In this document: positions 12,231 through 50,483 of the stretch, in pieces
Layout: every line of letters starts with the position of its first letter
How positions within the stretch are numbered: the first letter of the stretch is position 1
Position numbers and translations under genes: made by a program
Notes under the pieces: model-generated
Told to the model about the DNA's origin: nothing
Databases searched by the model: none
What the model saw: only the letters and a program-made list of their open reading frames with translations
From: Candidatus Latescibacterota bacterium
GTDB taxonomy: Bacteria > Latescibacterota > UBA2968
DNA length: 64,000 bases
Reading direction: 5' to 3'
Assembly: GCA_965116885.1 (NCBI GenBank)
Contig: OZ220741.1
Location: forward strand, 918,932-982,931

Positions 12231-12251
12231 CGCTGAACACACAAAGCAAAA

Positions 12252-13026: not shown

Positions 13027-13029
13027 CAA

Positions 13030-13070: not shown

Positions 13071-13104
13071 CAACTCTTAAATCTAACTCAAAAGGAGGAC
13101 CATC

Positions 13105-33437: not shown

Positions 33438-36017
33438 ATGGCAGCAAAAACACATCACCGCACCCCGAGATTTGCCTGCCTGAGCAGCATGCTCCTCCTG
33501 ATACTCATCTCCAGCGGACACGCGCTTGCACAATTCACCTATACCTGGAAGACCGATCAAACCTACGAAGGGACAGAATCGACCACCCTCGTACAACCCG
33601 TGCAGGTCATGTTCTTAGATGAGCCGATACAGGTCGTGCCACACAGTTCATCATTGCGCCTCATGCAAAAATATTCGGTATTACTCGGAACAGAATGGAA
33701 CGCAGAGCAGGCTTACCGCCTGCTCCAGACCTTTGAATCCGTCCCACAATTGAGTAACGACCCGTACAAAGAGACACTTGAAGTGCCATCTTCATTATGG
33801 CAATTGACAGACCAGCATATTCAAAATGACATAGAAATTCGCATCCAGGACGGACAGAAAATCGTCACCCTATCCCGGGAGGCTTTTACATACGCCGACC
33901 CATTGCTGGCTGAAATAGAGGGTGTGAGAGGCCGCTTCTTCTCCAAAAGACTCCATCAGGCCGTCGTTCGCTATGTAACCGACGATGGCAGAGACAGAGA
34001 TGCCCTGAAGCAGATATTAGAGAACCGCTACGGCGTAAGTATAGATGTACCGGACTATACTGAACTGACGCGAAGAACAACAAGGGAAGATGCAGGTCGG
34101 TTTGGAGAATTCAAAAACGAGGAATTGATGGCTCTTGTGAGTATGTTTGAAGAATTCCCACAAGGCATGCTCACGACGCCAGGGCTGCGATATCTGGTTC
34201 GGCGATTAGATGGAACACCCTCTCCAATTGTATCGGGTGCTGTTGCTTTAGCCTGGGTGACCGAAGGCTATATCGAATTTATGGAAGGCGCTTTTAAGAG
34301 AATAAATCTCGGCTACATCCACCGCCTGATTCTCCATGAAAAAGCGCACTTCTTATGGGAACATCTCTTTGACGACCAGCTCAAACAGGACTGGATTGAA
34401 CTCGGCGGCTGGTATGAAAACCCGGACGACAAAGATGGCTGGTCAACGACCAAACAGACCGAGTTCGTATCTGCTTATGCACACGGTGTGAATCCGAATG
34501 AGGATATGGCAGAAACGATCAGCTATTACATCGTGAACCCCGACAAGTTGCGCTCGCGTTCCCCTGCCAAATACGAATTTGTTCGAGACCGGATCATGCA
34601 CGGCACGCACTACATATCCCAGATACGCGAAGACCTGATGTTTCAGGTCTATAATCTATATCCCTATGTGGTATATCCCGGCCGGATCATACGGGTTGAC
34701 ATACGGGTTGAAGGCGAACCCGAAGAAGATAAGGATATAACAATAGAACTTGAGCTTCACCAGGAAAATGACTTTGATAATGCGCAGGCATCACGCCTGA
34801 GCATTCACAGCCCAAAAGGCACCTTTTTTTCTATCTGGCTTTATCCCGTAAGCGCCGATGGCCAACGCATCAATGCAAGTCACATTTTGAGAGGACAACG
34901 CACACTATCCAGGCACGCGGCGCATGGCTATTGGGGTCCAGATCGAATTACCCTGAGGGATGCCCAGGGCAATGAACGGCACGAATCTCAGATCGATTTC
35001 GGATGGAAGCTCTATGTCAACAATCCACTCGCAGATGATAAACCGCCGGAGTACATCAAAAATTCAATGCAACTCTCGTTGTCACAAAGGACAGCAGAAG
35101 GCAAGCCATATCAAATTCTCACCGCACGTTGGAAAATTTTTGAAGAAATCGGGATACCGGAACAGGGCGTCAAAGCTGAACTGAATGATATGAATGCCGA
35201 GACCTATTCCTTCTACACGAGGTGGGGTAATTATGACCCTCAGACCGGTGAAGCGCGTGTTCAACTTGCGATTCCGGATTACTTTCGGAGTGGCACATAC
35301 ACGCTTAATCATATCCTGATGTATGATATCGCGTTAAATCCACGGGGCGTGCACTTTACCGATCCAGGAAGAGGAATAAGAGACGAAGACATCATAATAG
35401 ATGAGGCACCTGCCACCATTGATGTCCAAACGACAAATCCGGATGACACCCCACCCGTACTCGCTTTGAATCAGATCACCATTCAGGCAGAACCGACCAA
35501 TATAGAAGCACCAAACGGCGAAACGCGGGTCGATATTACTTTTAAAGTCAAGGACAACATCAGTGGATATCTTGTGACAGACATGTATTTACGCGATCCC
35601 AACGGCGTGAGGCACCGCTTTAGACATTACGAACCGGATTATCGCAAAATCTATTTTACACGGGATCCCACTGTCTATGAAACCTACCATAAAGCGATCA
35701 CCTTGCCCGTTGGCAGTATTCCCGGAACGTGGGGACTTGCGGAAATAAAAATATGGGACAAAGCATATAACCTCCTTCGGACAAACTTCACTGACATCAT
35801 CCGCTTTGAGGTAGAAGAGACGCCCCTTGCCTCTGCCGACTTTGATGGCGATGGACAGGTCGATGTCGCAGACTTTCTGCTCTTTGTAGAAGTGTTTGGA
35901 ACCCAGAGCGGACAGGAAAACTTCGATCCAAAATACGACCTCAACAGCGATGGAATCATTGGCATTCCCGACTTCCTCATCTTTGTGGATTCCTTTGGCA
36001 AAACGGTCATTGGATAA
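33438..36017 (+). CDS. secreted putative zinc metallopeptidase-like protein (HExxH) with C-terminal dockerin-like Ca-binding repeat pair, paralog A
   Basis: Signal peptide MAAKTHHRTPRFACLSSMLLLILISSGHALA. Motif LILHEKAHFLWEHLF (HEKAH) with a possible third ligand NPNEDMAETI ~55 aa downstream. C-terminal DFDGDGQVDVADFLLFVEVFG...YDLNSDGIIGIPDFLIFVDSFG. Confidence 0.65.
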   Translation: MAAKTHHRTPRFACLSSMLLLILISSGHALAQFTYTWKTDQTYEGTESTTLVQPVQVMFLDEPIQVVPHSSSLRLMQKYSVLLGTEWNAEQAYRLLQTFESVPQLSNDPYKETLEVPSSLWQLTDQHIQNDIEIRIQDGQKIVTLSREAFTYADPLLAEIEGVRGRFFSKRLHQAVVRYVTDDGRDRDALKQILENRYGVSIDVPDYTELTRRTTREDAGRFGEFKNEELMALVSMFEEFPQGMLTTPGLRYLVRRLDGTPSPIVSGAVALAWVTEGYIEFMEGAFKRINLGYIHRLILHEKAHFLWEHLFDDQLKQDWIELGGWYENPDDKDGWSTTKQTEFVSAYAHGVNPNEDMAETISYYIVNPDKLRSRSPAKYEFVRDRIMHGTHYISQIREDLMFQVYNLYPYVVYPGRIIRVDIRVEGEPEEDKDITIELELHQENDFDNAQASRLSIHSPKGTFFSIWLYPVSADGQRINASHILRGQRTLSRHAAHGYWGPDRITLRDAQGNERHESQIDFGWKLYVNNPLADDKPPEYIKNSMQLSLSQRTAEGKPYQILTARWKIFEEIGIPEQGVKAELNDMNAETYSFYTRWGNYDPQTGEARVQLAIPDYFRSGTYTLNHILMYDIALNPRGVHFTDPGRGIRDEDIIIDEAPATIDVQTTNPDDTPPVLALNQITIQAEPTNIEAPNGETRVDITFKVKDNISGYLVTDMYLRDPNGVRHRFRHYEPDYRKIYFTRDPTVYETYHKAITLPVGSIPGTWGLAEIKIWDKAYNLLRTNFTDIIRFEVEETPLASADFDGDGQVDVADFLLFVEVFGTQSGQENFDPKYDLNSDGIIGIPDFLIFVDSFGKTVIG

Positions 36018-36042
36018 GCACGCGGACACAGATAAAAAAGAA

Positions 36043-36077
36043 GCACCAGGTCAGATATGTGATCCGGTGCTTTTTTT
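36043..36077 (+). terminator. rho-independent terminator after paralog A
   Basis: gcaccaggtcagatatgtgatccggtgc followed by ttttttt. Confidence 0.55.
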
Positions 36078-36136
36078 ATTCCGTCGATAAGGAAGCCAAT
36101 TAACCATTGACTCGCAAACTATAATTTTTATATTAG

Positions 36137-36177
36137 CACAAACGTTCACAACAAACGTTCACAACAAACGTTCACAC
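36137..36177 (+). promoter_or_regulatory. 3 tandem copies of a 13-bp unit (ACAAACGTTCACA) upstream of paralog B; candidate regulator binding array
   Basis: The sequence reads cacaaacgttcacaacaaacgttcacaacaaacgttcacac, and each unit contains the palindromic core AACGTT. Confidence 0.4.
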
Positions 36178-36217
36178 AGAAATTAGGCACAGTTCAACAC
36201 TTGAAAGGAGTAACACA

Positions 36218-38803
36218 TTGACAGCAAAAACACATCACCACATCTTGAGATTTGCGTTCCTCAGCAGCATGATCCTTCTGATAGCACTCATCTTCAGCGG
36301 ACATGCTCTTGCACAATATACCTATACCTGGAAAACCGACACAACCTACGAAGGGGTAGATCGGGCAACCCTCGTTCAACCCGTACAGGTCATGTTCTTA
36401 CACCAGCCGATACAGGTCGTGCCCCACAGCGCATCATTGCGTCTCATGCAACAGTATTCTGTTTTACTCGGCACCGAATGGAGTGATGGTCAGGCTTACC
36501 GACTGCTCCAGACCTTTGAATCCATCCCACAATTGAGTAACGACCCGTACAAAGAGACACTTGAAGTGCCATCTTCATTATGGCAATTGACAGACCAGCA
36601 TATTCAAAATGACGTAGAGATTCGCTTCCAGGATGGGCAGAAAATCGTCACCCTGTCCCGGGAGGCTTTTACCTATGCCGACCCATTGCTGGCTGAAATA
36701 GAGGGTGTGAGAGGCCGTTTCTTCTCCAAAAGACTCCACCATGCCGTTGTTCGCTATGTAACCGATGGTGGCAGGGATAGAGATGCGCTAAAGCAGATTT
36801 TAGAGAAACGGTATGGCATAAGCATAGATGTGCCGGACTATACCGAACTCACGCGAAGAACAACAAAAGAACATGCAGGTCGTTTTGGAGAATTCAAAAA
36901 CGAAGAATTGATAGCTCTTGTGAGTATGTTTGAAGAATACCCACAAGGCATGCTCAGCACACCAGGGTTGCAATATCTGGTTAGACGATTGGATGGAACA
37001 CCTCATCCAATTAACCCGTCTGCTCCTGCTATAGCCTGGGTGACCGAGGGCTATATTGAGTTCATGGAATCTGCTTTTAAGGGACAGGACCTCGACTACA
37101 TCCACCGCTTAATTCTCCATGAAAAAGCACATTTTTTCTGGGAACATCTCTTTGATGACCAACTCAAACAGGACTGGATTGAACTCGGCGGCTGGTATGA
37201 AAACCCGGACGACAAAGATGGCTGGTCAACGACCAAACAGACCGAGTTCGTATCTGCTTATGCACACGGTGTGAATCCGAATGAGGACATGGCAGAAACG
37301 ATCAGTTATTACATCGTGGATCCCGACAAGTTGCGCTCCCGTTCGCCTGCCAAATACGAATTTATTCGCGATCGGGTCATGCACGGCACGCGGTACATCT
37401 CTCGGATACGCGAAGACCTGACATTTCAGGTCTATAATCTGTATCCCGATGTCGTATATCCAGGACGGATCATACGGGTTGACATACAGGTTGAGGGAGA
37501 ACCGGAAGAGGATAAGGTAATAACAGTAGAGCTTGAACTTCACCGGGATAATAGCTTCGAAACAGCACAAACAACAAATATCCGGATCTTCAACTCCAAA
37601 GGTACCTTTTTTTACCTCAGGCTTTTTCCTGTAGATGCCAATGGACTGCGCGTCAATGAAAGTCACATTTTGCGAGGGCACTACGCACTATCAAAGCACG
37701 CAGCACATGGCTACTGGGGACCAGATCAAATTAGCCTCAAGGATGCCCAGGGCAATGAACGGCACGAATCCCAGGTCGATTTCGGATGGAAACTCTACGT
37801 CAACAATCCGCTTGCAGATGATACACCACCTGCTTACGTCAAAAATTCAATGCAACTCTCATTGTCACAGGGCACGGCAGAAGGCAGGCTCGTACAAATC
37901 CTCACCGCACGTTGGCGGCTTTTTGAAGAATTCGGTGTAAGAAAACTCTATGCACAACTAAACGATGCAAATGCTGAAACCTATTCTCGTCGCGCGCAGG
38001 AGTATGGAAATTATAATCCACAAACCGGTGAAGCAAGTGTCCAACTTAAAATTCCGGATTACTTCCAGAATGGCACATATATCGTTAACTATGTCAAGAT
38101 GCGTGATATGGCGTTAAATGCACAAGGCGTGTACTTTACCGATCCAGGACACGGGTTAAGGATTGAAGATGTCATAGCAGATGAATCACCTGCCACCATT
38201 GATGTTCAAACGACAAATCCGGATGACACTCTACCCGTGCTCGATCTAAATCAGATCACCATTCAGGCAGAGCCAATCAATCCAGAAGAACCAAATGGCG
38301 AAACAAAGGTCGATATTGCCTTTAGAATCAAGGACGACATCAGTGGATATAGTTCGACAGAAATATATTTACGCGACCCCAATGGTGTGAGACACTACTT
38401 TAGGCATCTCGATCCGGATTATTACAAAGTCTATTTTACACGCGATCCAGCTGTCTATGAAACCTACCATAAAACGATCATCTTGCCCGTTGGCAGCATC
38501 CCCGGAACGTGGGGAATCGCTGAAATGAAAGTATTCGATAAAGCATATAACCTCCTTCGTGCGAACTTCACTGAAATCATCCGCTTTGAGGTAACCGATA
38601 CGCCGCTTACTGCTATCTCTGCCGACTTTGATGGCAGTGGACAGGTCGATATCGCTGACTTTTTGTTTTTTGTCAATGTGTTTGGAACCCAGAGCGGACA
38701 GGAGAACTTCGATCCAAAATACGACCTCAACAGCGATGGAACAGTTGACATTACCGACTTCCTCATCTTCGTAGATTCCTTTGGCAAACCTGTCAGTGGA
38801 TAG
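36218..38803 (+). CDS. secreted putative zinc metallopeptidase-like protein (HExxH) with C-terminal dockerin-like repeat pair, paralog B
   Basis: TTG start after the RBS aaaggag. ~75% identical to paralog A. Motif LILHEKAHFFWEHLF. C-terminal ADFDGSGQVDIADFLFFVNVFG...YDLNSDGTVDITDFLIFVDSFG. Confidence 0.65.
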   Translation: MTAKTHHHILRFAFLSSMILLIALIFSGHALAQYTYTWKTDTTYEGVDRATLVQPVQVMFLHQPIQVVPHSASLRLMQQYSVLLGTEWSDGQAYRLLQTFESIPQLSNDPYKETLEVPSSLWQLTDQHIQNDVEIRFQDGQKIVTLSREAFTYADPLLAEIEGVRGRFFSKRLHHAVVRYVTDGGRDRDALKQILEKRYGISIDVPDYTELTRRTTKEHAGRFGEFKNEELIALVSMFEEYPQGMLSTPGLQYLVRRLDGTPHPINPSAPAIAWVTEGYIEFMESAFKGQDLDYIHRLILHEKAHFFWEHLFDDQLKQDWIELGGWYENPDDKDGWSTTKQTEFVSAYAHGVNPNEDMAETISYYIVDPDKLRSRSPAKYEFIRDRVMHGTRYISRIREDLTFQVYNLYPDVVYPGRIIRVDIQVEGEPEEDKVITVELELHRDNSFETAQTTNIRIFNSKGTFFYLRLFPVDANGLRVNESHILRGHYALSKHAAHGYWGPDQISLKDAQGNERHESQVDFGWKLYVNNPLADDTPPAYVKNSMQLSLSQGTAEGRLVQILTARWRLFEEFGVRKLYAQLNDANAETYSRRAQEYGNYNPQTGEASVQLKIPDYFQNGTYIVNYVKMRDMALNAQGVYFTDPGHGLRIEDVIADESPATIDVQTTNPDDTLPVLDLNQITIQAEPINPEEPNGETKVDIAFRIKDDISGYSSTEIYLRDPNGVRHYFRHLDPDYYKVYFTRDPAVYETYHKTIILPVGSIPGTWGIAEMKVFDKAYNLLRANFTEIIRFEVTDTPLTAISADFDGSGQVDIADFLFFVNVFGTQSGQENFDPKYDLNSDGTVDITDFLIFVDSFGKPVSG

Positions 38804-38828
38804 CTGTCGCGCGGTCAAACACCACAAA

Positions 38829-38862
38829 GCCCGTCAATCAATGAGCATTGACGGGCTTTTTT
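38829..38862 (+). terminator. rho-independent terminator (gcccgtcaat...attgacgggc + T6)
   Basis: A 10-bp perfect stem. Confidence 0.7.
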
Positions 38863-38885
38863 GTACTTAAAGATGTGATTTTTAC

Positions 38886-39971: not shown

Positions 39972-40567
39972 ACCCTCCTGACCTTTATATTTTCCACCAC
40001 AGCCGCAACCCCCGCAACCACACCAGTCCGAATCGTCTCCAACGCCATACTCGGCTGCGACCTCCCCAGTTCCGCAATAAGCTCCGGCGTAGGCGGCACG
40101 TGAATAAACCCCGCGGGCAGATCATCCTCAGCGACCAGATGCAGCACAGAATACATAATGTGATTGCACAAAAACGTACCCGCCGAATACGTCAACCGCG
40201 CCGGCACCCCGGCATCCTCCATCCGCTGAACCATAGCCCGGGTCGGCAACGTAGAAAAATAGGCATCCGGACCCCCTTCCACAATGGGATAATCGCCCCC
40301 ATCTATCACCTTCAAATTAATCCCAACGCGCTCGACATGGAGCGCAGACGCAGAACCGTGCAACCCCAAACACACCACCGCCACTGGCTCGTATTCTGCG
40401 ATCAGCGGCGCAACCCGATCAATATCCGCCCCGTGAACAACCGGCAACACAGCCGAAACAACCTCGCATCCACCAATCGAAACCCCATCCAAAGACTCAG
40501 CCACAGCGCCCGATGGATTGGACGACCACGCTGCCCAGGGTTCAAAACCCGTCAGTAAAATTTTCAC
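39968..40567 (-). CDS. pcp: pyroglutamyl-peptidase I (peptidase C15)
   Basis: Begins VKILLTGFEPW (GTG start); other motifs are NPSG, TYSAGTFLCNH (catalytic Cys) and a His near the C-terminus. Confidence 0.8.
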   Translation of the reverse strand: MKILLTGFEPWAAWSSNPSGAVAESLDGVSIGGCEVVSAVLPVVHGADIDRVAPLIAEYEPVAVVCLGLHGSASALHVERVGINLKVIDGGDYPIVEGGPDAYFSTLPTRAMVQRMEDAGVPARLTYSAGTFLCNHIMYSVLHLVAEDDLPAGFIHVPPTPELIAELGRSQPSMALETIRTGVVAGVAAVVENIKVRRV

Positions 40568-42624
40568 GCGCCCTCCTCCGCTGTAATACAAGAAACCCGA
40601 TGCCCACCCGCGACCTCGACCCCCGTGCACTGGACAGCTTCGACGGTAACATCCCCTTTATCCCAGACAACAGTACCCGTCCCCATCGCCTCAACATGCA
40701 CCTCACCCTCGGGCACCGTAAGCGTCAGCGGTTCAGGTTCCACCCCGTGAAAAGCAGCCACATAGCGCTCGGTCTGAGAACATGCAAAAAGCCATGCGGG
40801 CTGTCTTCCGCAGATCAACGTAGCGTCTCCAACCGAGATTTCACCCGTACTGCTCTGACGGGCAAACGGCGACTCGAGCGGAGGCCAGCCCAGAACACCC
40901 TCCTGCGTCCAGCGCTTCTGAAGAACCCACGCCAGCAAATCGATCTCAATACCCAGCGTCTCCCCACCCCGGGTATATTCCACGGACCACGGCCGCGTCT
41001 TCCCCGCTTCATAAGTCACAGGAGGCGCAGCATCATCTCTCAGAGCACCGCCGGCAACCGCCCGAACAAAAGACTGCACATCCGCATAATCCGACCGCTC
41101 AGCCATCTCCGCATAAAAACCGCACCGGGGCTTACCCTGATAAAAAGAACCCGGATGTCCCTGCTCCCAGAACGTCTTGGACGGGCCCAGATAATTATAT
41201 AGCTCCAAAAAAAGATGCGTATCGTACGCCACCAGACGCAGAGGTGCATTCCGCCCCAAATCTGTACGCGCAAGCGGGCGAATCGCAGAAAGAACCGGAC
41301 CAATCGCAACACCAACCGTAGCACCATCCGGAACATCGAACGGCAAACTCTCCACCTTCTCATCACCAACCCAAATCTCATCCACCAGCCCGCAATCGTG
41401 CCAGCACACAACGGCTTTGGCACTGCTCCGCGGCGCCATCGCGCCCAGATCCTTCGGCGAATAAAGCACAATCGCCCGGGAACCATCCTGGACATTGTGA
41501 CACTGCCCCTCCTCAAAAAGAATCTGATCATTGGACCGCGCGGGCGTTGACCGAAACGACCCGAGCCAGTGATCATCCAGCACATACCGGGAATAAATAA
41601 CACCCGTCTGATCCGTACCCGTCTTGTGATGCGCGACAAAAACACTCGACTGCCCGGTAATAAAGCGATTCGTCTGACTGCGAAGTTCCTGAGACGAAAC
41701 CCCCAGCGCAAACGAAGGACTGTGATACGTGGAAATCCCCACGCCATTTTCCGAATCAGCCGTCTCCAAAAGAAAAAACGTCTCCGGACGGTAATCGAGC
41801 GCATCGGACAGCCAATCGGGAAGAACACCCGCCTCAATATATTCCCGAAACGCATCGATCTCCGGCGGCATCTGGCAAAAAAGCGCGTGCCGGTACGCCC
41901 GGCTAAAAGGACCTGCCCAGCGACCCGTAGGCCGATGAATATGCAGGGCTGCTGAAAGACCAATACGCGCGCACATCGCCCTGGCACCAATGCGCGTAGG
42001 CTTGTGCTGCACCAGTTCGCCCAGCCTGTGCAACACGCGCATCGCCACATTCGCGTAACCGGGACTATTAAACTCGTACGCACAACCATTTTGAGTCGTA
42101 AAATCCATCCACGCCCGGAACTTCTCATACCCCCGGTTCTCAAACGCCTCATCCCCGAGCAACTCCCCACCCAAACACGTATTGGCAATATCCTTAACCA
42201 CAATATTCGTATAGCGAAAATGAACATCAATCCGCCGAACCTCTTCCAACCCCAGGCGAATACTCTGCCGGACGCGATTCTGCATATCCTCAGAAAGCGC
42301 ATTCCCATAATTAATCATCAGTGGAATAAGCTGAAAAAGACAAAACTGAACCGCATTCAAATCCTCCACCACCTCATCCTCGCGCTCCCACAGAAAATTT
42401 CCCAAATGGGGATCGCCCTCACGCGTCTCCTGACATGCCAGCATCGCATCGAGCACCTTCTCAGCCAAATCGACATCCTCACGCGCACCATTCGCCAGAA
42501 GATCGTTGGCAAACTCAGCCGCCAGACGCGGCGCGTGATACATCTTGCCCTCTTCCCAGCGAGACAGCATAAAAGTCTCAGGATTAAAATTCGGGGGAAT
42601 AGGAAGGGGTTGAGCTTTAGACAT
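40564..42624 (-). CDS. hypothetical 686-aa cytoplasmic protein, possibly polysaccharide-lyase/heparinase II/III-like (alpha/alpha toroid + beta-sandwich)
   Basis: No signal peptide. The start is taken as MSKAQPLPIPP. It is co-linear with pcp and the Gfo/Idh/MocA gene, with 4-nt overlaps. The family assignment is weak. Confidence 0.55.
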   Translation of the reverse strand: MSKAQPLPIPPNFNPETFMLSRWEEGKMYHAPRLAAEFANDLLANGAREDVDLAEKVLDAMLACQETREGDPHLGNFLWEREDEVVEDLNAVQFCLFQLIPLMINYGNALSEDMQNRVRQSIRLGLEEVRRIDVHFRYTNIVVKDIANTCLGGELLGDEAFENRGYEKFRAWMDFTTQNGCAYEFNSPGYANVAMRVLHRLGELVQHKPTRIGARAMCARIGLSAALHIHRPTGRWAGPFSRAYRHALFCQMPPEIDAFREYIEAGVLPDWLSDALDYRPETFFLLETADSENGVGISTYHSPSFALGVSSQELRSQTNRFITGQSSVFVAHHKTGTDQTGVIYSRYVLDDHWLGSFRSTPARSNDQILFEEGQCHNVQDGSRAIVLYSPKDLGAMAPRSSAKAVVCWHDCGLVDEIWVGDEKVESLPFDVPDGATVGVAIGPVLSAIRPLARTDLGRNAPLRLVAYDTHLFLELYNYLGPSKTFWEQGHPGSFYQGKPRCGFYAEMAERSDYADVQSFVRAVAGGALRDDAAPPVTYEAGKTRPWSVEYTRGGETLGIEIDLLAWVLQKRWTQEGVLGWPPLESPFARQSSTGEISVGDATLICGRQPAWLFACSQTERYVAAFHGVEPEPLTLTVPEGEVHVEAMGTGTVVWDKGDVTVEAVQCTGVEVAGGHRVSCITAEEGA

Positions 42625-42641
42625 AATGCACTCCGATAGTA

Positions 42642-42670
42642 TTGACACTTCATTAAAAGATGTGTAAAAT
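42642..42670 (+). promoter_or_regulatory. consensus sigma-70-type promoter TTGACA-17nt-TAAAAT upstream of the GH10 xylanase gene
   Basis: The -35 TTGACA lies at 42642-42647 and the -10 TAAAAT at 42665-42670, with a 17-nt spacer. Confidence 0.5.
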
Positions 42671-42764
42671 GCGATACCCAAAGTAGCCAGAACGCGATGG
42701 ACTGGCAAGACAAACCCATTCGTCTTGCGATGAACATGTATTCATCCTCTACTCATTTGGCATC

Positions 42765-44006
42765 ATGCAAAAACACACAAAAATCCTTTTATGTCTCGCA
42801 CTGGGATTAACACCTATTCTGACCAGTCTTGCCCATGCACAAACCGACCTGGCACGCGCAGACTTTGATGGCAATCGGAAGGTTGATATTCAAGACTTTC
42901 TCGCATTTGTCGCGGCTTTCGGAAAGACTTCATCGGAGGAAGGTTTTGATAGCAGAATGGACTTTAATGGCGACAACGCCGTTAATATCCAGGACTTTCT
43001 CGCATTTGTCGCGGTTTTCGGTCAATCTGTTGAACTGAAGGACCTGGCCGGTTATCCGGTAGGGGTATCTCTCCAGACAAAGTATTTGACCGATGATGCC
43101 CGGGTATCACTCATCAAAAAAACATTCAGCAGCATAACCGGCGGATGGGAGATGAAGCCGATCTCAACGGGACCTGGCGCCTATGACTGGCGCAGAGCAG
43201 ACGCGCTCGTAGATTTTGCGGAAGCCAACAACATGCAGGTCCATGGGCATACGTTGCTGTGGCACAATACCGTACCTACCTGGATGGAGAACTTCTCGGG
43301 AGACGATGCGGCCTTTGAAGCGGCCATAAAGGAATACATCACAACAGTGGTGCAGCGGTATCGCGGGCGGGTCGTTAGCTGGGACGTGGTCAACGAAGGC
43401 ATTGACGGTAGAGGAAAGGTGCGCGACAACTTATTCAGCCAGCGCATGGGGAATGACTATATCGCCCGCATGTTTCAGTATGCCCGTGAAGCAGACCCCG
43501 ATGTATTGCTATTTTACAACGATTACGGCACATCGCAGCCCTGGGCCCGCGCCAAACGCGCTGGCATGCTAAACATGCTGGACGATTTCCAGACACGCGG
43601 TATTCCCATAGACGGAGTCGGTTTGCAAATGCATATTTCCTACAACTCTCCAGACATCTCGACAATACGAGAAACCATTGACGAGATCATACGACGGGGA
43701 CTCAAACTACACATCTCCGAACTGGACATCCGCATCAACCCCGATGGCGACCTGTCCGAACCGACTCAAGAGCGGCTCGAATTGCAAAAAAAGCGCGTCA
43801 TAGAAATCGTGACAGCTTTCCACCAGGTACCGGAAGCACAGCGGTTTGGCATCACGATATGGGGAATAGCGGACCCGGACACCTGGCTCATACAGGCTGG
43901 CCGAAGTCAGGGCCGTCCCGAATGGCCGCTCTTATTCGATGATCACCTGCAGCCCAAACCGGCTTACGATGGATTTGTCGAAGCACTTCAGAACAAAGGA
44001 TTTTAG
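42765..44006 (+). CDS. glycoside hydrolase family 10 endo-1,4-beta-xylanase with N-terminal dockerin-like repeat pair
   Basis: A signal peptide, an N-terminal ADFDGNRKVDIQDFLAFVAAFG...MDFNGDNAVNIQDFLAFVAVFG, and the GH10 catalytic motifs WDVVNEG (acid/base) and HISELDIR (nucleophile). Confidence 0.85.
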   Translation: MQKHTKILLCLALGLTPILTSLAHAQTDLARADFDGNRKVDIQDFLAFVAAFGKTSSEEGFDSRMDFNGDNAVNIQDFLAFVAVFGQSVELKDLAGYPVGVSLQTKYLTDDARVSLIKKTFSSITGGWEMKPISTGPGAYDWRRADALVDFAEANNMQVHGHTLLWHNTVPTWMENFSGDDAAFEAAIKEYITTVVQRYRGRVVSWDVVNEGIDGRGKVRDNLFSQRMGNDYIARMFQYAREADPDVLLFYNDYGTSQPWARAKRAGMLNMLDDFQTRGIPIDGVGLQMHISYNSPDISTIRETIDEIIRRGLKLHISELDIRINPDGDLSEPTQERLELQKKRVIEIVTAFHQVPEAQRFGITIWGIADPDTWLIQAGRSQGRPEWPLLFDDHLQPKPAYDGFVEALQNKGF

Positions 44007-44133
44007 CCATAAATATCAGAGTTTTGGAAAAAAAATTGGCGATCCTGCATTCAATGCGACAGCCGATTTAGACAGCAGCGGTACGATCGACATTCAAGAC
44101 TTTCTGATTTTTGTTCAGGCTTTTGGCAATTGA
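43939..44133 (+). pseudogene. out-of-frame dockerin-like half-repeat (DLDSSGTIDIQDFLIFVQAFGN) directly 3' of the xylanase; possible frameshifted C-terminal module
   Basis: A different reading frame overlapping the last ~20 codons of the xylanase encodes ...GDPAFNATADLDSSGTIDIQDFLIFVQAFGN*, which matches the dockerin-like motif family. Confidence 0.35.
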
Positions 44134-44254
44134 CAACCCCTGAAATTCACACTTCACGCCCCTCTTTTTCATCTGTGGTCATCTGCGCCATCTGCGAAAA
44201 ACGCTCAAATTATTCGCGTTTTTTTCTACGGATCACACTTCACAGGAGCCTCTC

Positions 44255-45097
44255 ATGGCAACCGCCGAAACACCCATCGCGATGCATGAACCATCCCTCT
44301 ACGAAACAACCAGACGGGCAGACTATCTCGACACCCTCGCCGACATTGACGACCGTCAAATCGCCCAATTTCACGAACAGGGATACCTCGCCATTCAACG
44401 GGCATTCACGCCGCAACAAATCGAATCCGCGGGCCAGGCCATGTGGGATCTCATCGACGGCAAAAGCCAGGACTTCAAAGGCGTAATGGCCGAAGCCGCC
44501 AAACGCGGGCAATTTTCCGAACTCACAGGCAAAGCGCGCCGCGACAGCGTGCGTAAAATCTGGAAATTCGTCGATTATGACACCCGGCTCAACGACCTCG
44601 CCCACGACCCCAACATCCTCTCCGTACTCTCCCGCATGATGGACGACACACCCGTACTCTTTCAGGACATGGGACTGATCAAACCCCCGCACATCGGCCG
44701 CGAAAAACCCTGGCATCAGGACTGCGCGTACTTCAACTATCCCGTCGGCACCACCGTCGTCGGCGTATGGATCGCCATCGATGCCGCTACAGAAGAAAAC
44801 GGATGCTTGCACATCATCCCCGGCTCACACCGCGAAGGACCCATCCCGCACTTCAGGCGACGCGACTGGCAAATATGCGACACCGACGTCGCCGTCCCCA
44901 GAAACGTCACCGTCCCCCTCAACCCCGGCGGATGCCTCTTCTGGCACGGCATGACCCATCACGGCAGCCCAACCAACCAATCCGCCCACCGCCGCAGGGC
45001 ACTGCAATACCACTACCGCCCCGAAAGCACCGTGGAAATGACGGCAAAAGAACGCCTCGCCATCTACGGCGGCGACGAACTCGGCGTAACGTACTGA
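44255..45097 (+). CDS. phytanoyl-CoA dioxygenase (PhyH) family Fe(II)/2OG oxygenase, canonical HxD
   Basis: PWHQDCAYF, VWIAIDAATEENGCLHIIPGSHRE and LFWHGMTHHGSPN. Confidence 0.75.
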   Translation: MATAETPIAMHEPSLYETTRRADYLDTLADIDDRQIAQFHEQGYLAIQRAFTPQQIESAGQAMWDLIDGKSQDFKGVMAEAAKRGQFSELTGKARRDSVRKIWKFVDYDTRLNDLAHDPNILSVLSRMMDDTPVLFQDMGLIKPPHIGREKPWHQDCAYFNYPVGTTVVGVWIAIDAATEENGCLHIIPGSHREGPIPHFRRRDWQICDTDVAVPRNVTVPLNPGGCLFWHGMTHHGSPTNQSAHRRRALQYHYRPESTVEMTAKERLAIYGGDELGVTY

Positions 45098-45106
45098 ATC
45101 ACTTAT

Positions 45107-45964
45107 TTACAGCTCACTCTTATCTTTCACCTGCGGCTCTCTCGGGAGCGGCACTTGCGGTTGCACAATGCGGCGGCGTTGGGGGGTGAGGCGTGCCAGC
45201 AACTCTGGCGACGGCTGGTACCCGTGCCGAAAATTCCCCCACGAAGGCCCGTAGCGATACACCGCGATACGCCGCGTCCCCGCATTCATCCGCTTTGCCG
45301 ACCCGTGTGAAAGTCCATCCACAAAAACCAGCGCATCGCCCGCCTTCATAAACACCTCAATCGCGCCCACCGTCCCATCCACAGACCTGTCCTCTCCCAT
45401 CCTCTGCTCATCGTAAAACGGATGTCTGAAATTCGCCTTGTGGCTCCCCGGAATCAACATCGTCCCCCCATCGCCCGGACCGATATCCGTCAGCGCCATC
45501 AGCACATTCACCTGCCCGCACATAAACCGCCCCCCGTGATACCGGAACTGATTCCTCATAATCGGCGGAAACCCGCCCGAATGCAACCCAATCGCCTCCC
45601 CCGGCTCGCGAAAATTGGCCAAACACTCATCGATAAACATCGGACCGTGATGGTGATCAAACGTCCCCTCCGCCCCGATAAAAAGCTTCACATGCTCAAA
45701 CCACGACGGATGATCAATCAGCTTCTCAAACGGCTCGCCCGCCTCGTAAATCTGTTGATAATTGATCCCCGACGTCACATCGCCATACGCATGACCCTGA
45801 ACATACCCATACCACTCCCCCGGCTTCAGCGCGGGAATCTCATCCAAACAACCGTTCAACGCCTGAACCTCATCCGTCGTCAGCGCCCCCTCCATAAGCA
45901 GGTACCCGCGCAGGTCAAACAAATAAACATCGAGATCTGGAACCATCGTCACGCTCCTTGTCAA
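45107..45964 (-). CDS. PhyH-family protein, non-canonical (no HxD/E)
   Basis: PGSHK and HGS motifs are present, but the motif-1 region reads GLHSGGFPP...RYHGGRF. Confidence 0.7.
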   Translation of the reverse strand: MTRSVTMVPDLDVYLFDLRGYLLMEGALTTDEVQALNGCLDEIPALKPGEWYGYVQGHAYGDVTSGINYQQIYEAGEPFEKLIDHPSWFEHVKLFIGAEGTFDHHHGPMFIDECLANFREPGEAIGLHSGGFPPIMRNQFRYHGGRFMCGQVNVLMALTDIGPGDGGTMLIPGSHKANFRHPFYDEQRMGEDRSVDGTVGAIEVFMKAGDALVFVDGLSHGSAKRMNAGTRRIAVYRYGPSWGNFRHGYQPSPELLARLTPQRRRIVQPQVPLPREPQVKDKSEL

Positions 45965-46030
45965 TATTAGCTATGCATATCGCAAGTTATGATAAACTGT
46001 TATAGGCTTAAAAGCCATAGCATTTTTGGC

Positions 46031-46170
46031 GGGCGACCACAGGGGGTCGCCCCTACAATCTGGATCGCGGCTAACACATTGCCGCGATGACGGGCGGGCA
46101 CGGGGGCACCGCCCCTACAACAACGGGTGGACAGGGCATACGTACGGGCGAGGCATGCCTCGCCCCTACC
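46031..46170. repeat. REP-like hairpin repeat cluster: gggcgaccacagggggtcgcccctaca 46031-46057, gggcgggcacgggggcaccgcccctaca 46092-46119, gggcgaggcatgcctcgcccctacc 46146-46170, plus intervening hairpin atcgcggc...gccgcgat
   Basis: Read directly from the sequence. Confidence 0.85.
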
Positions 46171-46246
46171 AACGTAATATTCTTTCTTGCTTCATTCTCA
46201 TTCAAACCATATAATTTGGAAACACAGTAAAAATGGACATACAACT

Positions 46247-47098: not shown

Positions 47099-47112
47099 AG
47101 GAGAGAAACACG

Positions 47113-48348: not shown

Positions 48349-48367
48349 TGGCAACTGGATCGCGGAC

Positions 48368-48394
48368 GGGACGGCACAGGGGCCGTCCCCTACA
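48368..48394. repeat. REP-like hairpin repeat gggacggcacaggggccgtcccctaca
   Basis: Read directly from the sequence. Confidence 0.85.
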
Positions 48395-48412
48395 ACATGG
48401 CAGGATTTATTG

Positions 48413-48940
48413 ATGCATAAGATGACAACTAAAACCTTCTGGATTGCGGTCGCCCTCCTCCTCTTCTCCGGATCGGGGTTGTGTGCGCCGTATAAAATCT
48501 ATATCTTTATGGGAGAAACCTGTCCGGTCTCGCGGCATTACACCTTGACACTCAAAGAACTGCACGCAGAATACGCATCTGAAAAACTCGAATTCATCGG
48601 CGTATTCCCCAATCGACTCTCCACCCCAGCCACGATTGCCGCGTTCAAAAAAAAATACGCCTTGCCATTCACCTGCATCGGGGATTCCATCCACACATGG
48701 GTGAACCGACTGGGCGCAACGATCACGCCAGAAGTCGTCGTTGCCGACACATCGAACACCGCCATCTATCGGGGTCGCATTGACAACACCTTTGCGGATT
48801 TGGGCAAAAGACGCCGCATCGTCACCGCCCACGACCTCACAGATGTACTGAAAGCCCTCAAGAACGAAAAACCCCCGGTATTTCGCCAGACCCAGGCCAT
48901 TGGCTGCATCATAACCTCATGGCAAAACACAAAGGAATAA
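48413..48940 (+). CDS. secreted thioredoxin-fold (redoxin-like) protein
   Basis: Signal peptide MHKMTTKTFWIAVALLLFSGSGLCA, then IYIFMGETCPVSRHY, a single-Cys redoxin-like motif. The track ORF start at 48158 is an upstream extension across a REP. Confidence 0.45.
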   Translation: MHKMTTKTFWIAVALLLFSGSGLCAPYKIYIFMGETCPVSRHYTLTLKELHAEYASEKLEFIGVFPNRLSTPATIAAFKKKYALPFTCIGDSIHTWVNRLGATITPEVVVADTSNTAIYRGRIDNTFADLGKRRRIVTAHDLTDVLKALKNEKPPVFRQTQAIGCIITSWQNTKE

Positions 48941-48944
48941 AGCC

Positions 48945-50483
48945 ATGCGACCACTTGCCCTCTCCATACTCGCGATCCTCCTCGCCGTTACTTCGCCACG
49001 CGCGGAAGCCCCCACCTTTAGCAAAGACGTCTCGTCCATCATATACAACAACTGCACATCGTGCCATCGAGACGGTGAAATAGGGCCTATGCCCCTCACA
49101 AATTACAGCGAAATCTCGGCTTATGCAGACATGATCAAACACGTCACAGAAACCCAGTACATGCCCCCGTGGAAACCCGATTACAACTACAGCCAGCACA
49201 TCGGCGCAAGAACACTCACCAAAACAGAAATCAACACAATATCAAACTGGGTCAACGCCGGCTTTCCCCAGGGCGACATCGCCCTTGAAGCCCCCATGCC
49301 GGAATTTCCAACAGGCTCTGTACTCGGCACCCCCGACCTCGTACTCACCATGGCAGAACCCTTTACCATCCGCGGCGACAATGAAGACCAGTACCAGGTC
49401 TTCGTCATCCCAACCCACCTCACAGAAGACCGGGAAGTCGAAGCCGTTGAATTTCGACCCGGCAACAGCAGAATCGTTCACCACGCCCTCATCGGCGCCG
49501 ACATCACGGGCACTGCCCGCCAAAGAGACCTCGAAACCCCGGAATACGGTTACGAATCCTTTGGTGCATTCGGCGCGCCAACCGCTGTTGTCCTCCCTGG
49601 ATATACACCCGGTGCAAAACCCCCGATATATCCCAAAGGCGTTGGACACATACTGCCCAAAAACTCCGACTTACTGATCCAGGTACACTACGCACCCTGG
49701 CCACTTGCAGAATCCGATCAATCCAGCATCAACATATTCTTCAAAAAAGAACCCATCGAAAGAGAAGTGGGTTTTATCACCTTCGCACCGCTCACCACGG
49801 ACGGTGAAAGACTGAGCAGACTATTCAGGGTCCTGCTCGGAGAAGAGCGACACGGCGGCACCCCCGTAGAAAAAATCCAAATTAGCGATATCTTTATCAT
49901 CCCGAAAGATCGAATCAAAACATTTCACACGACACTCTTCATCAATCGGGACATCAGCCTCCTGTCCATCTATCCGCACATGCACTTGTTGGGCAAATCC
50001 TGGGAAATCTATGCCACGGACCCACAGGGCAACCGCACCAACCTCATCCGTATTGAAGACTGGGATTTTAACTGGCAGGGCAATTACACCTTCACCCAAT
50101 ATCAAAAAATAACTGCGGGATCCCAAATCCACGCCATTACCACCTACGACAACACCACAAACAACCCGCTCAACCCCAACTATCCCCCCCGCCAATCGAC
50201 CTGGGGCGAAAAAACCACCGATGAAATGCTCCTGGCTGTCATGGAATACGTACCCTACCGACAAGGCGATGAAAACATCGCCCTCACCGTTGGCCGGGGC
50301 GGCGAAATAAGCATAGACTTCAACGGCAATGGACAAAAGGACTTTGCCGACTTCCTCCTATTCGTCCAGAACTTTGGCCTGAGCCGAAGCGACACCAGCT
50401 ATCAGCGTCACTTTGACCTCAACGAGGATGGACACATCAACTTTACCGACTTTATCATCTTCGCCAATCAATATGCGCAATAA
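48945..50483 (+). CDS. secreted PSCyt1-type cytochrome c domain protein with putative type-2 copper monooxygenase-like HH/HxH/M motifs and C-terminal dockerin-like repeat pair
   Basis: A signal peptide and a heme-binding CTSCH with the PSCyt1-like context IIYNNCTSCHRDGEIGPMPL...YMPPW...NWVNAGFP. Downstream are IVHHALIGA and YPHMHLLGKSW plus Met-rich TDEMLLAVMEY. C-terminal DFNGNGQKDFADFLLFVQNFG...FDLNEDGHINFTDFIIFANQY. Confidence 0.6.
   Translation: MRPLALSILAILLAVTSPRAEAPTFSKDVSSIIYNNCTSCHRDGEIGPMPLTNYSEISAYADMIKHVTETQYMPPWKPDYNYSQHIGARTLTKTEINTISNWVNAGFPQGDIALEAPMPEFPTGSVLGTPDLVLTMAEPFTIRGDNEDQYQVFVIPTHLTEDREVEAVEFRPGNSRIVHHALIGADITGTARQRDLETPEYGYESFGAFGAPTAVVLPGYTPGAKPPIYPKGVGHILPKNSDLLIQVHYAPWPLAESDQSSINIFFKKEPIEREVGFITFAPLTTDGERLSRLFRVLLGEERHGGTPVEKIQISDIFIIPKDRIKTFHTTLFINRDISLLSIYPHMHLLGKSWEIYATDPQGNRTNLIRIEDWDFNWQGNYTFTQYQKITAGSQIHAITTYDNTTNNPLNPNYPPRQSTWGEKTTDEMLLAVMEYVPYRQGDENIALTVGRGGEISIDFNGNGQKDFADFLLFVQNFGLSRSDTSYQRHFDLNEDGHINFTDFIIFANQYAQ

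Follow-up and report, generated by a model that had tools for sequence, protein, structure and literature searches.

Cellulosomal dockerins of clostridia consist of duplicated segments, each a 12-residue Ca2+ loop followed by a helix that ends in FG, and the modules described here share this build. Cohesin and dockerin modules outside cellulosomes have reportedly been found on toxins, peptidases and proteins of unknown function (as Peer et al. are said to have described in 2009), and the NagJ cohesin–NagH dockerin pair (2OZN) and the Archaeoglobus fulgidus cohesin (2XDH) likewise lie, as here, outside cellulose degradation. A scaffoldin can also be dispensed with: OlpA and OlpC of Clostridium thermocellum (3UL4, 4DH2), which join one cohesin to a surface-anchoring module, capture single dockerin enzymes directly, as we propose for the system below. 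What we describe is a tethering system of a known kind, though its secretion setting is unusual; a T9SS-linked precedent has been published once, for Candidatus Stygibacter (Cloacimonadota), an FCB-group diderm with a putative cellulosome-like system in which dockerins sit on signal-peptide enzymes including peptidases, as they do here, and the cohesin scaffoldin bears a CTD (PMC8542988). An earlier note on this DNA had called cohesin–dockerin pairing unusual in a T9SS-bearing lineage; the setting is indeed unusual, but Ca. Stygibacter means that it is not unprecedented (PMC8542988).

The window, the whole 64-kb stretch of DNA analysed, comes from a Latescibacterota MAG (older NCBI labels read Gemmatimonadota). 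It is syntenic with the Latescibacterota chromosomes OZ242320.1 (SecDF 98%), OZ242311.1 and OX638329.1, orthologs in syntenic relatives are 92–98% identical, and a protein identical to the second zincin-like protein listed below is present on a circular 5,561,361-bp contig. A six-frame scan for D-x-[DNS]-x-[DNS]-x3-[DNGST]-x2-D-F-L-x-F-x3-F-G found nine segments in the window, eight of them forming four pairs in a 33-residue register and the ninth standing alone. The pairs correspond to a ~55-aa module, present once on each of four signal-peptide proteins and built from two 12-residue EF-hand-like Ca2+ loops (D1, D/N3, D/N/S5, D12), each leading into a Phe-rich helix (DFLxFVxxFG). The GH10 protein has the tag at its N terminus, the other three at their C termini. 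The carriers and modules are:

33438..36017, + strand: zincin-like secreted protein 1, 859 aa from the ATG at 33438, with an HEKAH motif
35838..35999, + strand: dockerin module of zincin 1, segments DFDGDGQVDVADFLLFVEVFG and DLNSDGIIGIPDFLIFVDSFG (motif scan, alignment)
36218..38803, + strand: zincin-like secreted protein 2, 861 aa, C-terminal dockerin
38624..38785, + strand: dockerin module of zincin 2, segments DFDGSGQVDIADFLFFVNVFG and DLNSDGTVDITDFLIFVDSFG (motif scan)
42765..44006, + strand: GH10 endo-xylanase, 413 aa, with signal peptide, N-terminal dockerin and catalytic domain
42861..43022, + strand: dockerin module of GH10, directly behind the signal peptide (motif scan), with near-identical segments DFDGNRKVDIQDFLAFVAAFG and DFNGDNAVNIQDFLAFVAVFG
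44020..44133, + strand: orphan 3' half-dockerin, SFGKKIGDPAFNATADLDSSGTIDIQDFLIFVQAFGN and stop (translation), aligning to the second module half
48945..50483, + strand: secreted cytochrome c (CxxCH)/copper-monooxygenase-like protein, 512 aa, C-terminal dockerin
50316..50477, + strand: dockerin module of the cytochrome c/Cu protein, segments DFNGNGQKDFADFLLFVQNFG and DLNEDGHINFTDFIIFANQYA (motif scan)

The scan agrees, to within a few codons, with the earlier description of a two-copy Ca-loop module on several secreted proteins. That description spoke of four or five unrelated proteins; there are four carriers, but they represent three unrelated families, because zincin 2 is a tandem paralog of zincin 1 (79% identical), and the fifth copy is the orphan half-module, which lies outside any intact gene.

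Zincin 1 has a signal peptide ending in GHALA/Q, a C-terminal dockerin (Dockerin_1 at aa 810–857; lineage HMM E 2.4e-29 for the module) and weak matches to Peptidase_Mx/Mx1; its length of 859 aa is also that of the gene call in one related locus (L005), and its ortholog in another (L006) is 93% identical. Zincin 2 as a whole protein matches the PDB chain 2y3n_B at aa 800–859 (phmmer, E 9.6e-6), and homologs of the zincin family score 37–46 bits against Dockerin_1 at the same position. In the xylanase, Glyco_hydro_10 (E 5.4e-93) covers aa 96–406 and Dockerin_1 aa 32–79; orthologs at 93–98% identity keep both the N-terminal dockerin and the same C-terminus (9 of 9), and the module (lineage HMM E 1.2e-26) shows a pN/pS of 0.29–0.59 among them. 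The cytochrome c/Cu protein, preceded by a gene for a secreted AhpC/TSA-like redoxin (48416–48940), has Dockerin_1 at aa 458–506, a match to 2y3n_B at aa 456–510 (E 5.9e-5; lineage HMM E 1.1e-26) and weak matches to Cu2_monoox_C (21.4) and Cytochrome_CBB3 (20.4). Its cluster at 90% identity has 206 members, with lengths of 340–514 aa, mostly 511–514, among the 15 listed.

The ninth segment (44065–44127) lies in the +1 frame relative to GH10, which bears out the earlier report of an out-of-frame half-module after the xylanase. It belongs to a stretch that runs from the end of helix 1 through the linker and segment 2 to a stop codon at 44131–44133, and translation of 44020..44133 showed neither a signal peptide nor a credible start site. 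The half-module is conserved downstream of GH10 in four related loci (L001–L004), its frame relative to GH10 varying by genome between +1, −1 and an in-frame position that follows two stops, and in a sister genome it is called as a 54-aa ORF (P0101). Most plausibly it is what remains of the 3' end of a lost dockerin-coding sequence.

By sequence and by predicted structure, the shared module is a true dockerin, with loops predicted to bind Ca2+. Pfam Dockerin_1 (PF00404) matches all four proteins (E 1.4e-6 to 2.8e-4), two above the cut-off of 22.9 bits (zincin 2, 28.8; cytochrome c/Cu protein, 26.0) and two just under it (zincin 1, 21.6; GH10, 21.4). The best PDB match of the zincin 2 module is the Pseudobacteroides cellulosolvens Cel48 dockerin 2y3n_B (phmmer, E 1.4e-7), aligned over the full module (query 6–65, chain 5–64), and with a lineage profile the four ORFs reach E 1e-26 to 2e-29 and the orphan segment 1e-14; together these E-values show that the match is not due to chance. 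An AF2 model of the zincin 2 module (pLDDT 91.2) retrieved dockerins as all of its top 12 Foldseek matches (query-normalised TM 0.61–0.81, probability 0.99–1.0). The type-I-like dockerin reading in the earlier note is thus upheld at the level of sequence by Pfam and phmmer and at the level of fold by AF2 and Foldseek. We give almost no credence to the view that the module is instead a generic EF-hand pair that senses or buffers Ca2+. Troponin C and calcineurin B do appear in the phmmer list (E 1e-3 to 1e-1), and EF-hand_1, EF-hand_7 and other EF-hand models match weakly, but all of these models fall below their own cut-offs where Dockerin_1 reaches 21–29 bits; dockerin matches are stronger in every search, calmodulin and troponin reach a Foldseek TM of only about 0.25, against 0.6–0.8 for dockerins, and the 33-residue register and FG-terminated helices are dockerin features.

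Compared with chain B of 2Y3N, the module shows 32% identity over 60 aligned columns and a TM of 0.72/0.80, and a dual binding mode is conceivable, given how nearly symmetrical its two segments are. Unlike clostridial dockerins, however, its helices are unusually rich in Phe (DFLxFVxxFG) and without the Ser-Thr or Lys-Arg recognition pairs, its host is an FCB-group diderm rather than a Gram-positive, and its cargo is mostly not carbohydrate-active, with the module often at the N terminus.

The window also encodes proteins with a recognized sorting domain:

7745..14946, + strand: three tandem secreted Cache-domain proteins (7745–9763, 10311–12230 and 13105–14946), each ending in a T9SS type-A CTD

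These CTDs, proposed earlier, are confirmed by FlgD_ig (30–34 bits, above the cut-off), Por_Secre_tail (21–23 bits) and, for the protein at 7745–9763, NCBIfam TIGR04183 (43.4 bits, cut-off 23), and they show that T9SS sorting is in use in this genome. T9SS type-A cargo is exported by the T9SS, its CTD is cleaved and the protein is attached at the outer-membrane surface. The four dockerin proteins of the window have a Sec signal peptide only, with no match to TIGR04183 or PF18962. CTDs of this type (TIGR04183/PF18962) resemble the dockerin in being short terminal modules on many unrelated secreted proteins, and the earlier note had compared the two because both occur on secreted proteins of the same genome; they are unrelated in fold and sequence.

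Its suggestion that the module might itself be a terminal sorting or anchoring signal, parallel to the CTD, is not supported, and we regard it as very improbable. The module is terminal in all four window proteins, and the NCBIfam 'GC-type dockerin domain-anchored protein' model matches weakly (25.2 and 18.6 bits; cut-off 29). Across the lineage, however, position varies widely: among 179 dockerin ORFs in 1.45 Mb of fetched loci, the module is N-terminal in 66, near-N-terminal in 41, C-terminal in 51 and internal in 13, so that 120 of 179 carry it N-terminally (near-N included) or internally. Zincin homologs with ~65% identity from Poribacteria-labelled genomes, moreover, combine a dockerin and a CTD, in tandem, within a single polypeptide, which argues against the dockerin serving as an alternative sorting signal; in sequence and fold it matches dockerins that bind proteins, and the candidate receptor described below itself bears a CTD.

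The lineage loci also show how widely the tag is used. Two-segment modules with the 33-residue register make up 154 of 165; the cargo includes enzymes, AhpC/TSA redoxins and giants of 2,600–3,000 aa with LRR, fn3, cadherin or CARDB domains; and one genome, OX638329.1, has dockerins on at least 17 separate fetched loci.

A candidate receptor was found in seven dockerin loci of relatives, as ~268-aa proteins consisting of a signal peptide, a ~150-aa domain and a CTD (TIGR04183 T9SS type-A, 34–35 bits against a cut-off of 23). The ~150-aa domain is probably a cohesin, a call that comes mainly from predicted structure because Pfam is marginal, with one Cohesin score just over the cut-off of 24.1 bits (24.3) and two under it (20.6, 19.6). 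Precomputed PF00963 matches occur on several of the 120 family members listed, out of 459 hits for the family as a whole, and when the family profile is compared with PDB sequences, the NagJ cohesin of Clostridium perfringens matches the domain best (E 0.023). The AF2 model (block-mean pLDDT mostly 72–93 over residues 40–170) has nearly only cohesins among its Foldseek matches (E 1.4e-9 to 2.1e-5; target-normalised TM up to 0.73 for single-cohesin targets), 2JH2 and 2XDH ranking among the best and 3UL4 and 4DH2 also appearing. Whereas the one scaffoldin of Ca. Stygibacter (3,755 aa) combines tandem cohesins with CBM2/CBM3, these are single-cohesin proteins without a CBM, and unlike other non-cellulosomal cohesins they are fused only to a T9SS CTD. 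That CTD takes the place of the SLH module by which OlpA and OlpC are anchored to the Gram-positive wall. A type-A CTD anchor would mean covalent outer-membrane attachment after CTD cleavage.

In close relatives the cohesin-CTD genes are usually embedded in clusters of dockerin genes. Searched from the cohesin side, 3 of 3 genes of one type (L058) are flanked by dockerin genes on the same strand; in OX638329.1, a close relative of the window genome, a cohesin gene lies directly upstream of two dockerin genes; and both components occur on at least six complete chromosomes. A sponge MAG whose GH10 ortholog (MYB59439.1) is 95% identical to that of the window also appears, by shared accession series, to encode one of the cohesin-CTD proteins (MYB58693.1). 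On the opposite side, the neighbours of the most conserved cohesin-CTD subtype (P0366) are housekeeping genes of haem biosynthesis and mreB, with no dockerin gene among them. The earlier expectation that dockerins imply cohesin-bearing partners therefore holds for the lineage, but no cohesin was found in the 64-kb window, and none of the family members listed (120 of 459 matches; 15 of the 167 members of the 90%-identity cluster formed by the subtype of the window's nearest relatives) comes from its contig.

The likeliest reading, to which we assign a probability of roughly 0.6, is that the dockerins dock Ca-dependently onto T9SS-anchored surface cohesins; we infer both the binding and a cohesin in the window genome. 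The four window proteins have a Sec signal peptide and one dockerin tag each, while the cohesin-CTD protein would be exported via the T9SS, lose its CTD and become attached at the outer-membrane surface, where its single cohesin would bind dockerin carriers non-covalently in the presence of Ca2+. Against docking, the window proteins bear a Sec signal but no CTD, each genome has few cohesin genes (one to three copies) for possibly very many dockerin proteins, and cytochrome c-type proteins are more usually periplasmic.

It is also possible, if unlikely, that the window genome has no cohesin receptor and that its dockerins are Ca2+-dependent stabilizing modules or bind another ligand, such as a surface glycan, LPS, a host matrix component or another dockerin protein. 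The absence of a cohesin from the window fits this, as do the commonness of the module, whose profile matches 31,914 cluster representatives (E<=1e-3), and a cargo (cytochrome c protein, LRR and cadherin adhesins) unlike that of cellulosomes; non-cellulosomal dockerins without identifiable cohesins are reportedly widespread (Peer et al., 2009, a study cited in PMC6487960 and PMC8542988). The clustering of cohesin-fold proteins with dockerin genes in close relatives speaks against it, however, as do the size of the 167-member cluster, which argues for a conserved core function, and the conserved symmetry of the two segments, like that of cohesin-binding dockerins.

Rather doubtful, in our estimate, is a third arrangement, in which cohesin-CTD proteins would bind CTD-less dockerin proteins before these leave the periplasm and take them along through the T9SS translocon, supplying the sorting domain in trans and later also the surface anchor. 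None of the 179 Latescibacterota dockerin ORFs has a CTD by a local HMM that may miss divergent CTDs, the window proteins have Sec signals only, the receptors consist of cohesin and CTD alone, and the Poribacteria-labelled zincins with dockerin and CTD in cis suggest that the same cargo needs a CTD. This scheme is, however, entirely inferential, would require cargo of 2,600–3,000 aa to pass the translocon as a complex, and has no counterpart that we know of, T9SS hitch-hiking being undescribed to our knowledge.

In the preferred reading, docking at the cell surface, the cohesin anchors would display dockerin-tagged enzymes and adhesins. The dockerin itself is a general secretome tag in the Latescibacterota lineage, extending beyond carbohydrate-active enzymes.

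The earlier note described a shared calcium-loop module on several secreted proteins of the window, and an ORF listing combined with a six-frame motif scan bears this out: four + strand ORFs each carry one two-segment module, and a single further segment lies behind the xylanase gene. The six-frame motif scan of the window found no other copies.

Dockerin modules of the window and the genes that carry them (ORF listing and six-frame motif scan)
33438-36017, + strand: zincin-like protein with a HEKAH motif; dockerin at 35838-35999, C-terminal
36218-38803, + strand: paralogous zincin-like protein; dockerin at 38624-38785, C-terminal
42765-44006, + strand: GH10 xylanase; dockerin at 42861-43022, N-terminal, behind the signal peptide
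44020-44133, + strand: orphan half-dockerin (segment 44065-44127), just behind the GH10 stop in the +1 frame, with its own stop codon
48945-50483, + strand: CxxCH cytochrome c / Cu-monooxygenase-like protein; dockerin at 50316-50477, C-terminal

The four proteins all begin with a typical Sec signal peptide, as read from the sequence (basic n-region, hydrophobic core, AxA-like site), and only the GH10 protein is a CAZyme (Pfam Glyco_hydro_10, E 5e-93). The note had counted four or five unrelated carriers. The four secreted proteins stand, but the two zincin-like proteins are paralogs with 79% identity, so the cargo comprises three unrelated families, and the supposed fifth carrier is an orphan fragment. 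When the whole zincin and cytochrome c proteins were compared with the PDB, dockerins were the sole matches and the catalytic parts remained unmatched.

Several lines of evidence identify the module as a dockerin, that is, two tandem segments of about 22 residues, each with a 12-residue EF-hand-like loop that has acidic or amide residues as its ligands (positions 1, 3, 5 and 12) and is followed by a helix. Each of the eight segments in the four proteins agrees with this loop pattern, with D1 and D12 invariant. Pfam Dockerin_1 (PF00404) matches every one of the four, two above the gathering cut-off of 22.9 bits (28.8 and 26.0) and two slightly under it (21.6 and 21.4), and homologs of the zincin family score 37-46 bits at the equivalent position. 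Searched against the PDB with phmmer, the module from ORF 36218-38803 found its best match in a dockerin borne by an enzyme, Cel48 of Pseudobacteroides cellulosolvens (2Y3N chain B, E 1.4e-7), and the alignment runs from end to end. An AlphaFold2 model made from 43 homologs (mean pLDDT 91.2; helices at residues 18-27 and 51-60) predicts the three-dimensional fold of a dockerin: its best 12 Foldseek matches in the PDB were dockerins without exception (TM 0.61-0.81 normalised to the query, rmsd 1.3-2.1 A, probability 0.99-1.0). An ordinary EF-hand identity can be set aside, as the EF-hand families (PF00036 / PF13499) all score lower than Dockerin_1 and under threshold, at 10-21 bits against cut-offs of 25-30, and calmodulin and troponin structures align with the model at a TM of only about 0.25. 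The dockerin reading offered in the earlier note was thus right. The module is an additional member of a very large known family (31,914 representatives of 50% clusters match the profile at E<=1e-3, and 3,946 at E<=1e-10) whose function is well understood in principle. NCBIfam NF041540, "GC-type dockerin domain-anchored protein", scored 25.2 and 18.6 bits against a cut-off of 29 on ORFs 36218-38803 and 48945-50483; its existence means that NCBI curators already recognise a dockerin-as-anchor class, in another group of organisms.

In alignment, the half-module behind the xylanase covers the last part of helix 1 together with the linker and segment 2, and it is kept downstream of GH10 in four related loci. 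One candidate explanation, that GH10 has or once had a C-terminal dockerin reached by frameshift or read-through, was rejected: all nine GH10 orthologs end at the same residue, and the frame of the orphan relative to GH10 varies in three lineages, being +1, -1, or in frame behind two stops. A run of 7 or 8 A bases shifts the upstream part. Given the shared end and the varying frame, the orphan is best read as the 3' relic of a lost dockerin-coding sequence, and it has neither a start codon, nor a signal peptide, nor a consistent frame relation to GH10. Its own reading frame and Ca-ligand residues are kept in three diverged genomes (the window and two related loci, L001 11279-11395 and L002 11330-11436), with a synonymous bias and a pN/pS of 0.17-0.48, computed on only 11-17 differences and similar to that of the N-terminal GH10 dockerin (0.29-0.59). 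Recent loss of function (very recent decay), or gene conversion from the many paralogous dockerins, could explain this pattern.

The note had also raised the alternative that the module is a sorting signal working in parallel with the C-terminal sorting domain (CTD) of type IX secretion (the T9SS). A type-A CTD is a C-terminal beta-sandwich domain of about 75-90 residues that matches TIGR04183 / PF18962. Three Cache-domain proteins of the window carry one (Pfam FlgD_ig above cut-off; TIGR04183 43.4 bits against a cut-off of 23 for the one at 7745-9763), and this score, with the 34-35 bits of cohesin-CTD proteins from relatives, served as the positive control for the same searches. None of the four dockerin proteins matches Por_Secre_tail or FlgD_ig in Pfam, TIGR04183 did not match either of the two that were also run against NCBIfam (36218-38803 and 48945-50483), and a local HMM detected no CTD among 179 dockerin ORFs from Latescibacterota loci. 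Homologs of the zincins argue against it. At about 65% identity, proteins of about 990-1,010 aa, some named Candidatus Poribacteria, share the same core and have a dockerin at the equivalent place (residues 792-848, E 4e-12), then a linker, then a type-A CTD (904-992). As dockerin and CTD are joined in one chain, they have two separate functions, and the dockerin is no substitute sorting signal. Other zincin homologs have a CTD without a dockerin, or Big_1, Invasin_D3 or CarboxypepD_reg modules instead (P0196-P0243), and module swapping between sponge-associated phyla is evidently concentrated at the C-terminus of this family. Compared with the Poribacteria-labelled orthologs that have both domains, the Latescibacterota zincins have lost the CTD or never had it. 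In the window, three tandem paralogous secreted proteins (7745-9763, 10311-12230 and 13105-14946) have a dCache_2-like domain and near-identical type-A CTDs (...GVQTQRLLYLK); an extracytoplasmic Cache domain with neither a transmembrane segment nor a signalling output is unusual.

Proteins of the window have exact matches on a circular metagenome-assembled contig of 5,561,361 bp (ENA ERZ25072196, ctg194532_22x_c), and near-identical proteins from sponge MAGs carry the NCBI names "Gemmatimonadetes/Gemmatimonadota bacterium". The sponge-associated PAUC34f has been described as a sister group (PMC7081726). The window is syntenic with three Latescibacterota chromosomes: OZ242320.1 (SecDF 98% and zincin 93% identity), OX638329.1 (92-94% over window positions 1-2582) and OZ242311.1. 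The lineage is accordingly taken here to be Latescibacterota. The copy number of the zincin-dockerin gene, which lies between secDF and a GFO/IDH oxidoreductase gene, differs among these relatives: two tandem copies (79% identical) in the window (33438-38803), one in OZ242320.1 (L006 7589-10198), and none in a 6.32-Mb ENA contig (L001 4885-4964) or OZ242311.1 (L068 5541-6044). A 714-aa protein (40564-42708, - strand), divergent from GH10, occurs in all syntenic relatives at 91-93% identity, has no Pfam match at E<=0.01, and is split by a DDE transposase insertion in the L001 ortholog. Four ORFs (44255-45097; 45107-45964, 50542-51420 and 51444-52301 on the - strand) are, judged by their place and size, the counterparts of PhyH-family (phytanoyl-CoA dioxygenase-like) genes in the syntenic locus L002, and flank the cytochrome c/Cu gene cluster on both sides, beside genes for a HAD hydrolase and a redoxin. 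That cluster also has a conserved 411-aa protein, which one NCBI record calls "glucuronate isomerase".

Dockerins are used on a far larger scale across the lineage. A module-profile scan of one genome per GTDB species returned 71 loci, nearly all from complete Candidatus Latescibacterota chromosomes of 4-6.5 Mb, and the fetched loci, 1.45 Mb in all, contain 179 dockerin ORFs by the local HMM, often in same-strand clusters of three to seven genes. OX638329.1 accounts for at least 17 separate loci among the best 80. The dockerin is N-terminal, directly behind the signal peptide, in 66 of these ORFs, about 130-300 residues in for 41, at the extreme C-terminus in 51 and internal in 13, with eight more on short ORFs (<130 aa) that are mostly fragments. 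The two segments keep a 33-residue register in 154 of 165 two-segment modules; conservation of D1 and D12 is 100%, with D/N at position 3 and D/N/S at position 5. The window copies agree with the lineage consensus, DFDGDGxV(G/D)(F/I)xDFLxF(V/A)xxFG for segment 1 and DL(D/N)xDGxI(G/N/D)(F/I)xDFLIF(V/A)xxFG for segment 2, and the two GH10 segments are nearly identical to one another. Among the cargo proteins are giants (2,700-3,000 aa) that bear LRR, fibronectin-III, cadherin and CARDB domains, as well as LRR proteins of about 500 aa and AhpC/TSA redoxins; plant-cell-wall-degrading enzymes do not dominate, and the set is not cellulosome-like. Counts of "stand-alone dockerins" in these MAGs call for caution. 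Numerous database entries of 60-120 aa with nothing but a dockerin (P0048, P0050, P0051, P0054) represent the C-terminal ends of zincin or cytochrome c homologs, from short contigs or multi-Mb assemblies, and frameshifts, broken gene calls and real pseudogenes are candidate causes; in two loci (L059/L062) small dockerin ORFs stand in arrays of six or seven, which may share this cause. When the dockerin profile was used to search for homologs, every protein retrieved was 38-118 aa long and most were C-terminal fragments or broken gene calls, so such a short query is useless for finding multi-domain partners.

The earlier note reasoned that dockerins imply cohesin-bearing partner scaffolds. Candidate partners do appear in relatives, as CTD proteins with a single cohesin. 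They lack a CBM, unlike a multi-cohesin CBM scaffoldin, and the lineage cohesin HMM found no multi-cohesin protein in 1.45 Mb of loci. The 64-kb window itself contains no cohesin by Pfam or the lineage HMM. The candidate receptor is a family of about 268 aa, found beside dockerin genes in seven loci (L038, L041, L052, L057, L058, L067 and L071) and consisting of a signal peptide, a domain of about 150 residues and a CTD (CTD HMM; TIGR04183 34-35 bits against the cut-off of 23). Their sole name in public records is "T9SS type A sorting domain-containing protein". We looked for the two marks of a cohesin, a PF00963 sequence match and a nine-stranded beta-sandwich fold. Pfam Cohesin scores 24.3 (cut-off 24.1), 20.6 and 19.6 bits across about 90-100 of 139 profile positions; precomputed PF00963 matches are present on several of the 120 family members listed, the best 120 of 459; and the best PDB match of the family profile over this domain is the non-cellulosomal NagJ cohesin of C. 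perfringens (E 0.023). The Foldseek matches of an AlphaFold2 model (block-mean pLDDT mostly 72-93, residues 40-170) in the PDB were nearly all type I, type II or non-cellulosomal cohesins (E 1.4e-9 to 2.1e-5), with target-normalised TM up to 0.73 against single-cohesin targets. The domain is thus predicted to be a cohesin, with marginal support in sequence and strong support in the modelled fold. A phmmer search with a single CipA cohesin of C. thermocellum (checked against 1AOH, E 3.7e-89) found nothing below E 0.7 among all ORFs of the window and 76 loci; this probe was too insensitive, and domain-architecture reasoning was used instead.

A second, putative cohesin-like domain of about 135 aa (NSFSLSLD...RFEYD...GLxGTxRFRT) precedes the dockerin in 39 of the 41 proteins whose dockerin lies 130-300 residues in (for example L038 9443-14722, L069 7935-10397, L021 748-9858 and L083 8901-12347, with about 35 other ORFs in L013-L076). 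Its resemblance to cohesins is weak: Pfam Cohesin E 0.013-0.023, hhalign E 0.001 to the cohesin-CTD family, and a sole PDB profile match, cohesin 4uyp_A, at E 0.11. On giant adhesins, a head of signal peptide, putative cohesin-like domain and dockerin would permit chains or self-capping.

At least six complete chromosomes of relatives, with the close relative OX638329.1 among them, carry genes for both the cohesin-CTD proteins and dockerins. As the seven loci had originally been fetched for their dockerins, we looked up three cohesin genes directly, and all three (L083, L084 and L085) are flanked by same-strand dockerin genes. A second cohesin-CTD subtype, to which copies in both OX638329.1 and OZ244960.1 belong, forms a 167-member cluster at 90% identity. 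The representative of this cluster is surrounded by housekeeping genes (hemA/C/D, mreBC) and has no dockerin neighbours; the copy in OX638329.1 lies directly upstream of two dockerin genes. None of the 15 members listed for this cluster is on the 5,561,361-bp contig ctg194532_22x_c. One member, MYB58693.1, belongs to the same accession series as MYB59439.1, an ortholog 95% identical to the window GH10, and on that basis the two probably come from one MAG.

The best-supported reading is that the dockerins would serve as Ca2+-dependent docking tags and that their receptor in this lineage would be a single cohesin, exported by the T9SS and then fixed on the cell surface. Surface fixing of type-A CTD cargo is established for the T9SS. 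Functional analogues are OlpA and OlpC of C. thermocellum, single-cohesin anchors that use SLH modules where the proteins here have a CTD, and the sole precedent we found for a CTD-bearing cohesin protein is the proposed scaffoldin of Ca. Stygibacter (Cloacimonadota; PMC8542988). Latescibacteria are said, in a passage of PMC7081726 citing Farag et al. 2017, to possess "cellulosome-affiliated enzymes"; Youssef et al. 2015 do not mention dockerins, and our literature search found nothing specific on dockerins in sponge, Gemmatimonadota, Poribacteria or Latescibacteria contexts.

How proteins without a CTD cross the outer membrane leaves room for a bolder reading, which we consider unlikely. The cohesin-CTD proteins could be secretion adaptors in trans, capturing folded, CTD-less dockerin proteins in the periplasm, carrying them through the T9SS and staying on as their covalent anchor. 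If so, the whole dockerin-tagged secretome of a sponge-associated lineage, from enzymes and redox proteins to giant eukaryote-like adhesins, would owe its T9SS export and surface display to a single CTD-bearing cohesin or a few of them, and the putative cohesin-like domains before the dockerin in many giants would permit chains.

The window itself makes ordinary additions to a well-known family. What goes beyond routine is the secretome-scale use of dockerins on non-cellulolytic cargo (peptidase-like zincins, a cytochrome c/Cu protein, redoxins, and LRR and cadherin adhesins) together with a likely cohesin-CTD receptor. Seeing that receptor as a cohesin joins the cohesin-dockerin assembly of Gram-positive bacteria and the T9SS of Bacteroidota/FCB, which are usually treated as alternatives. 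The candidate binding pair bears on surface decoration in an uncultured lineage with sponge-derived bins among its nearest MAGs and, if confirmed, would improve the annotation of hundreds of proteins in these MAGs.
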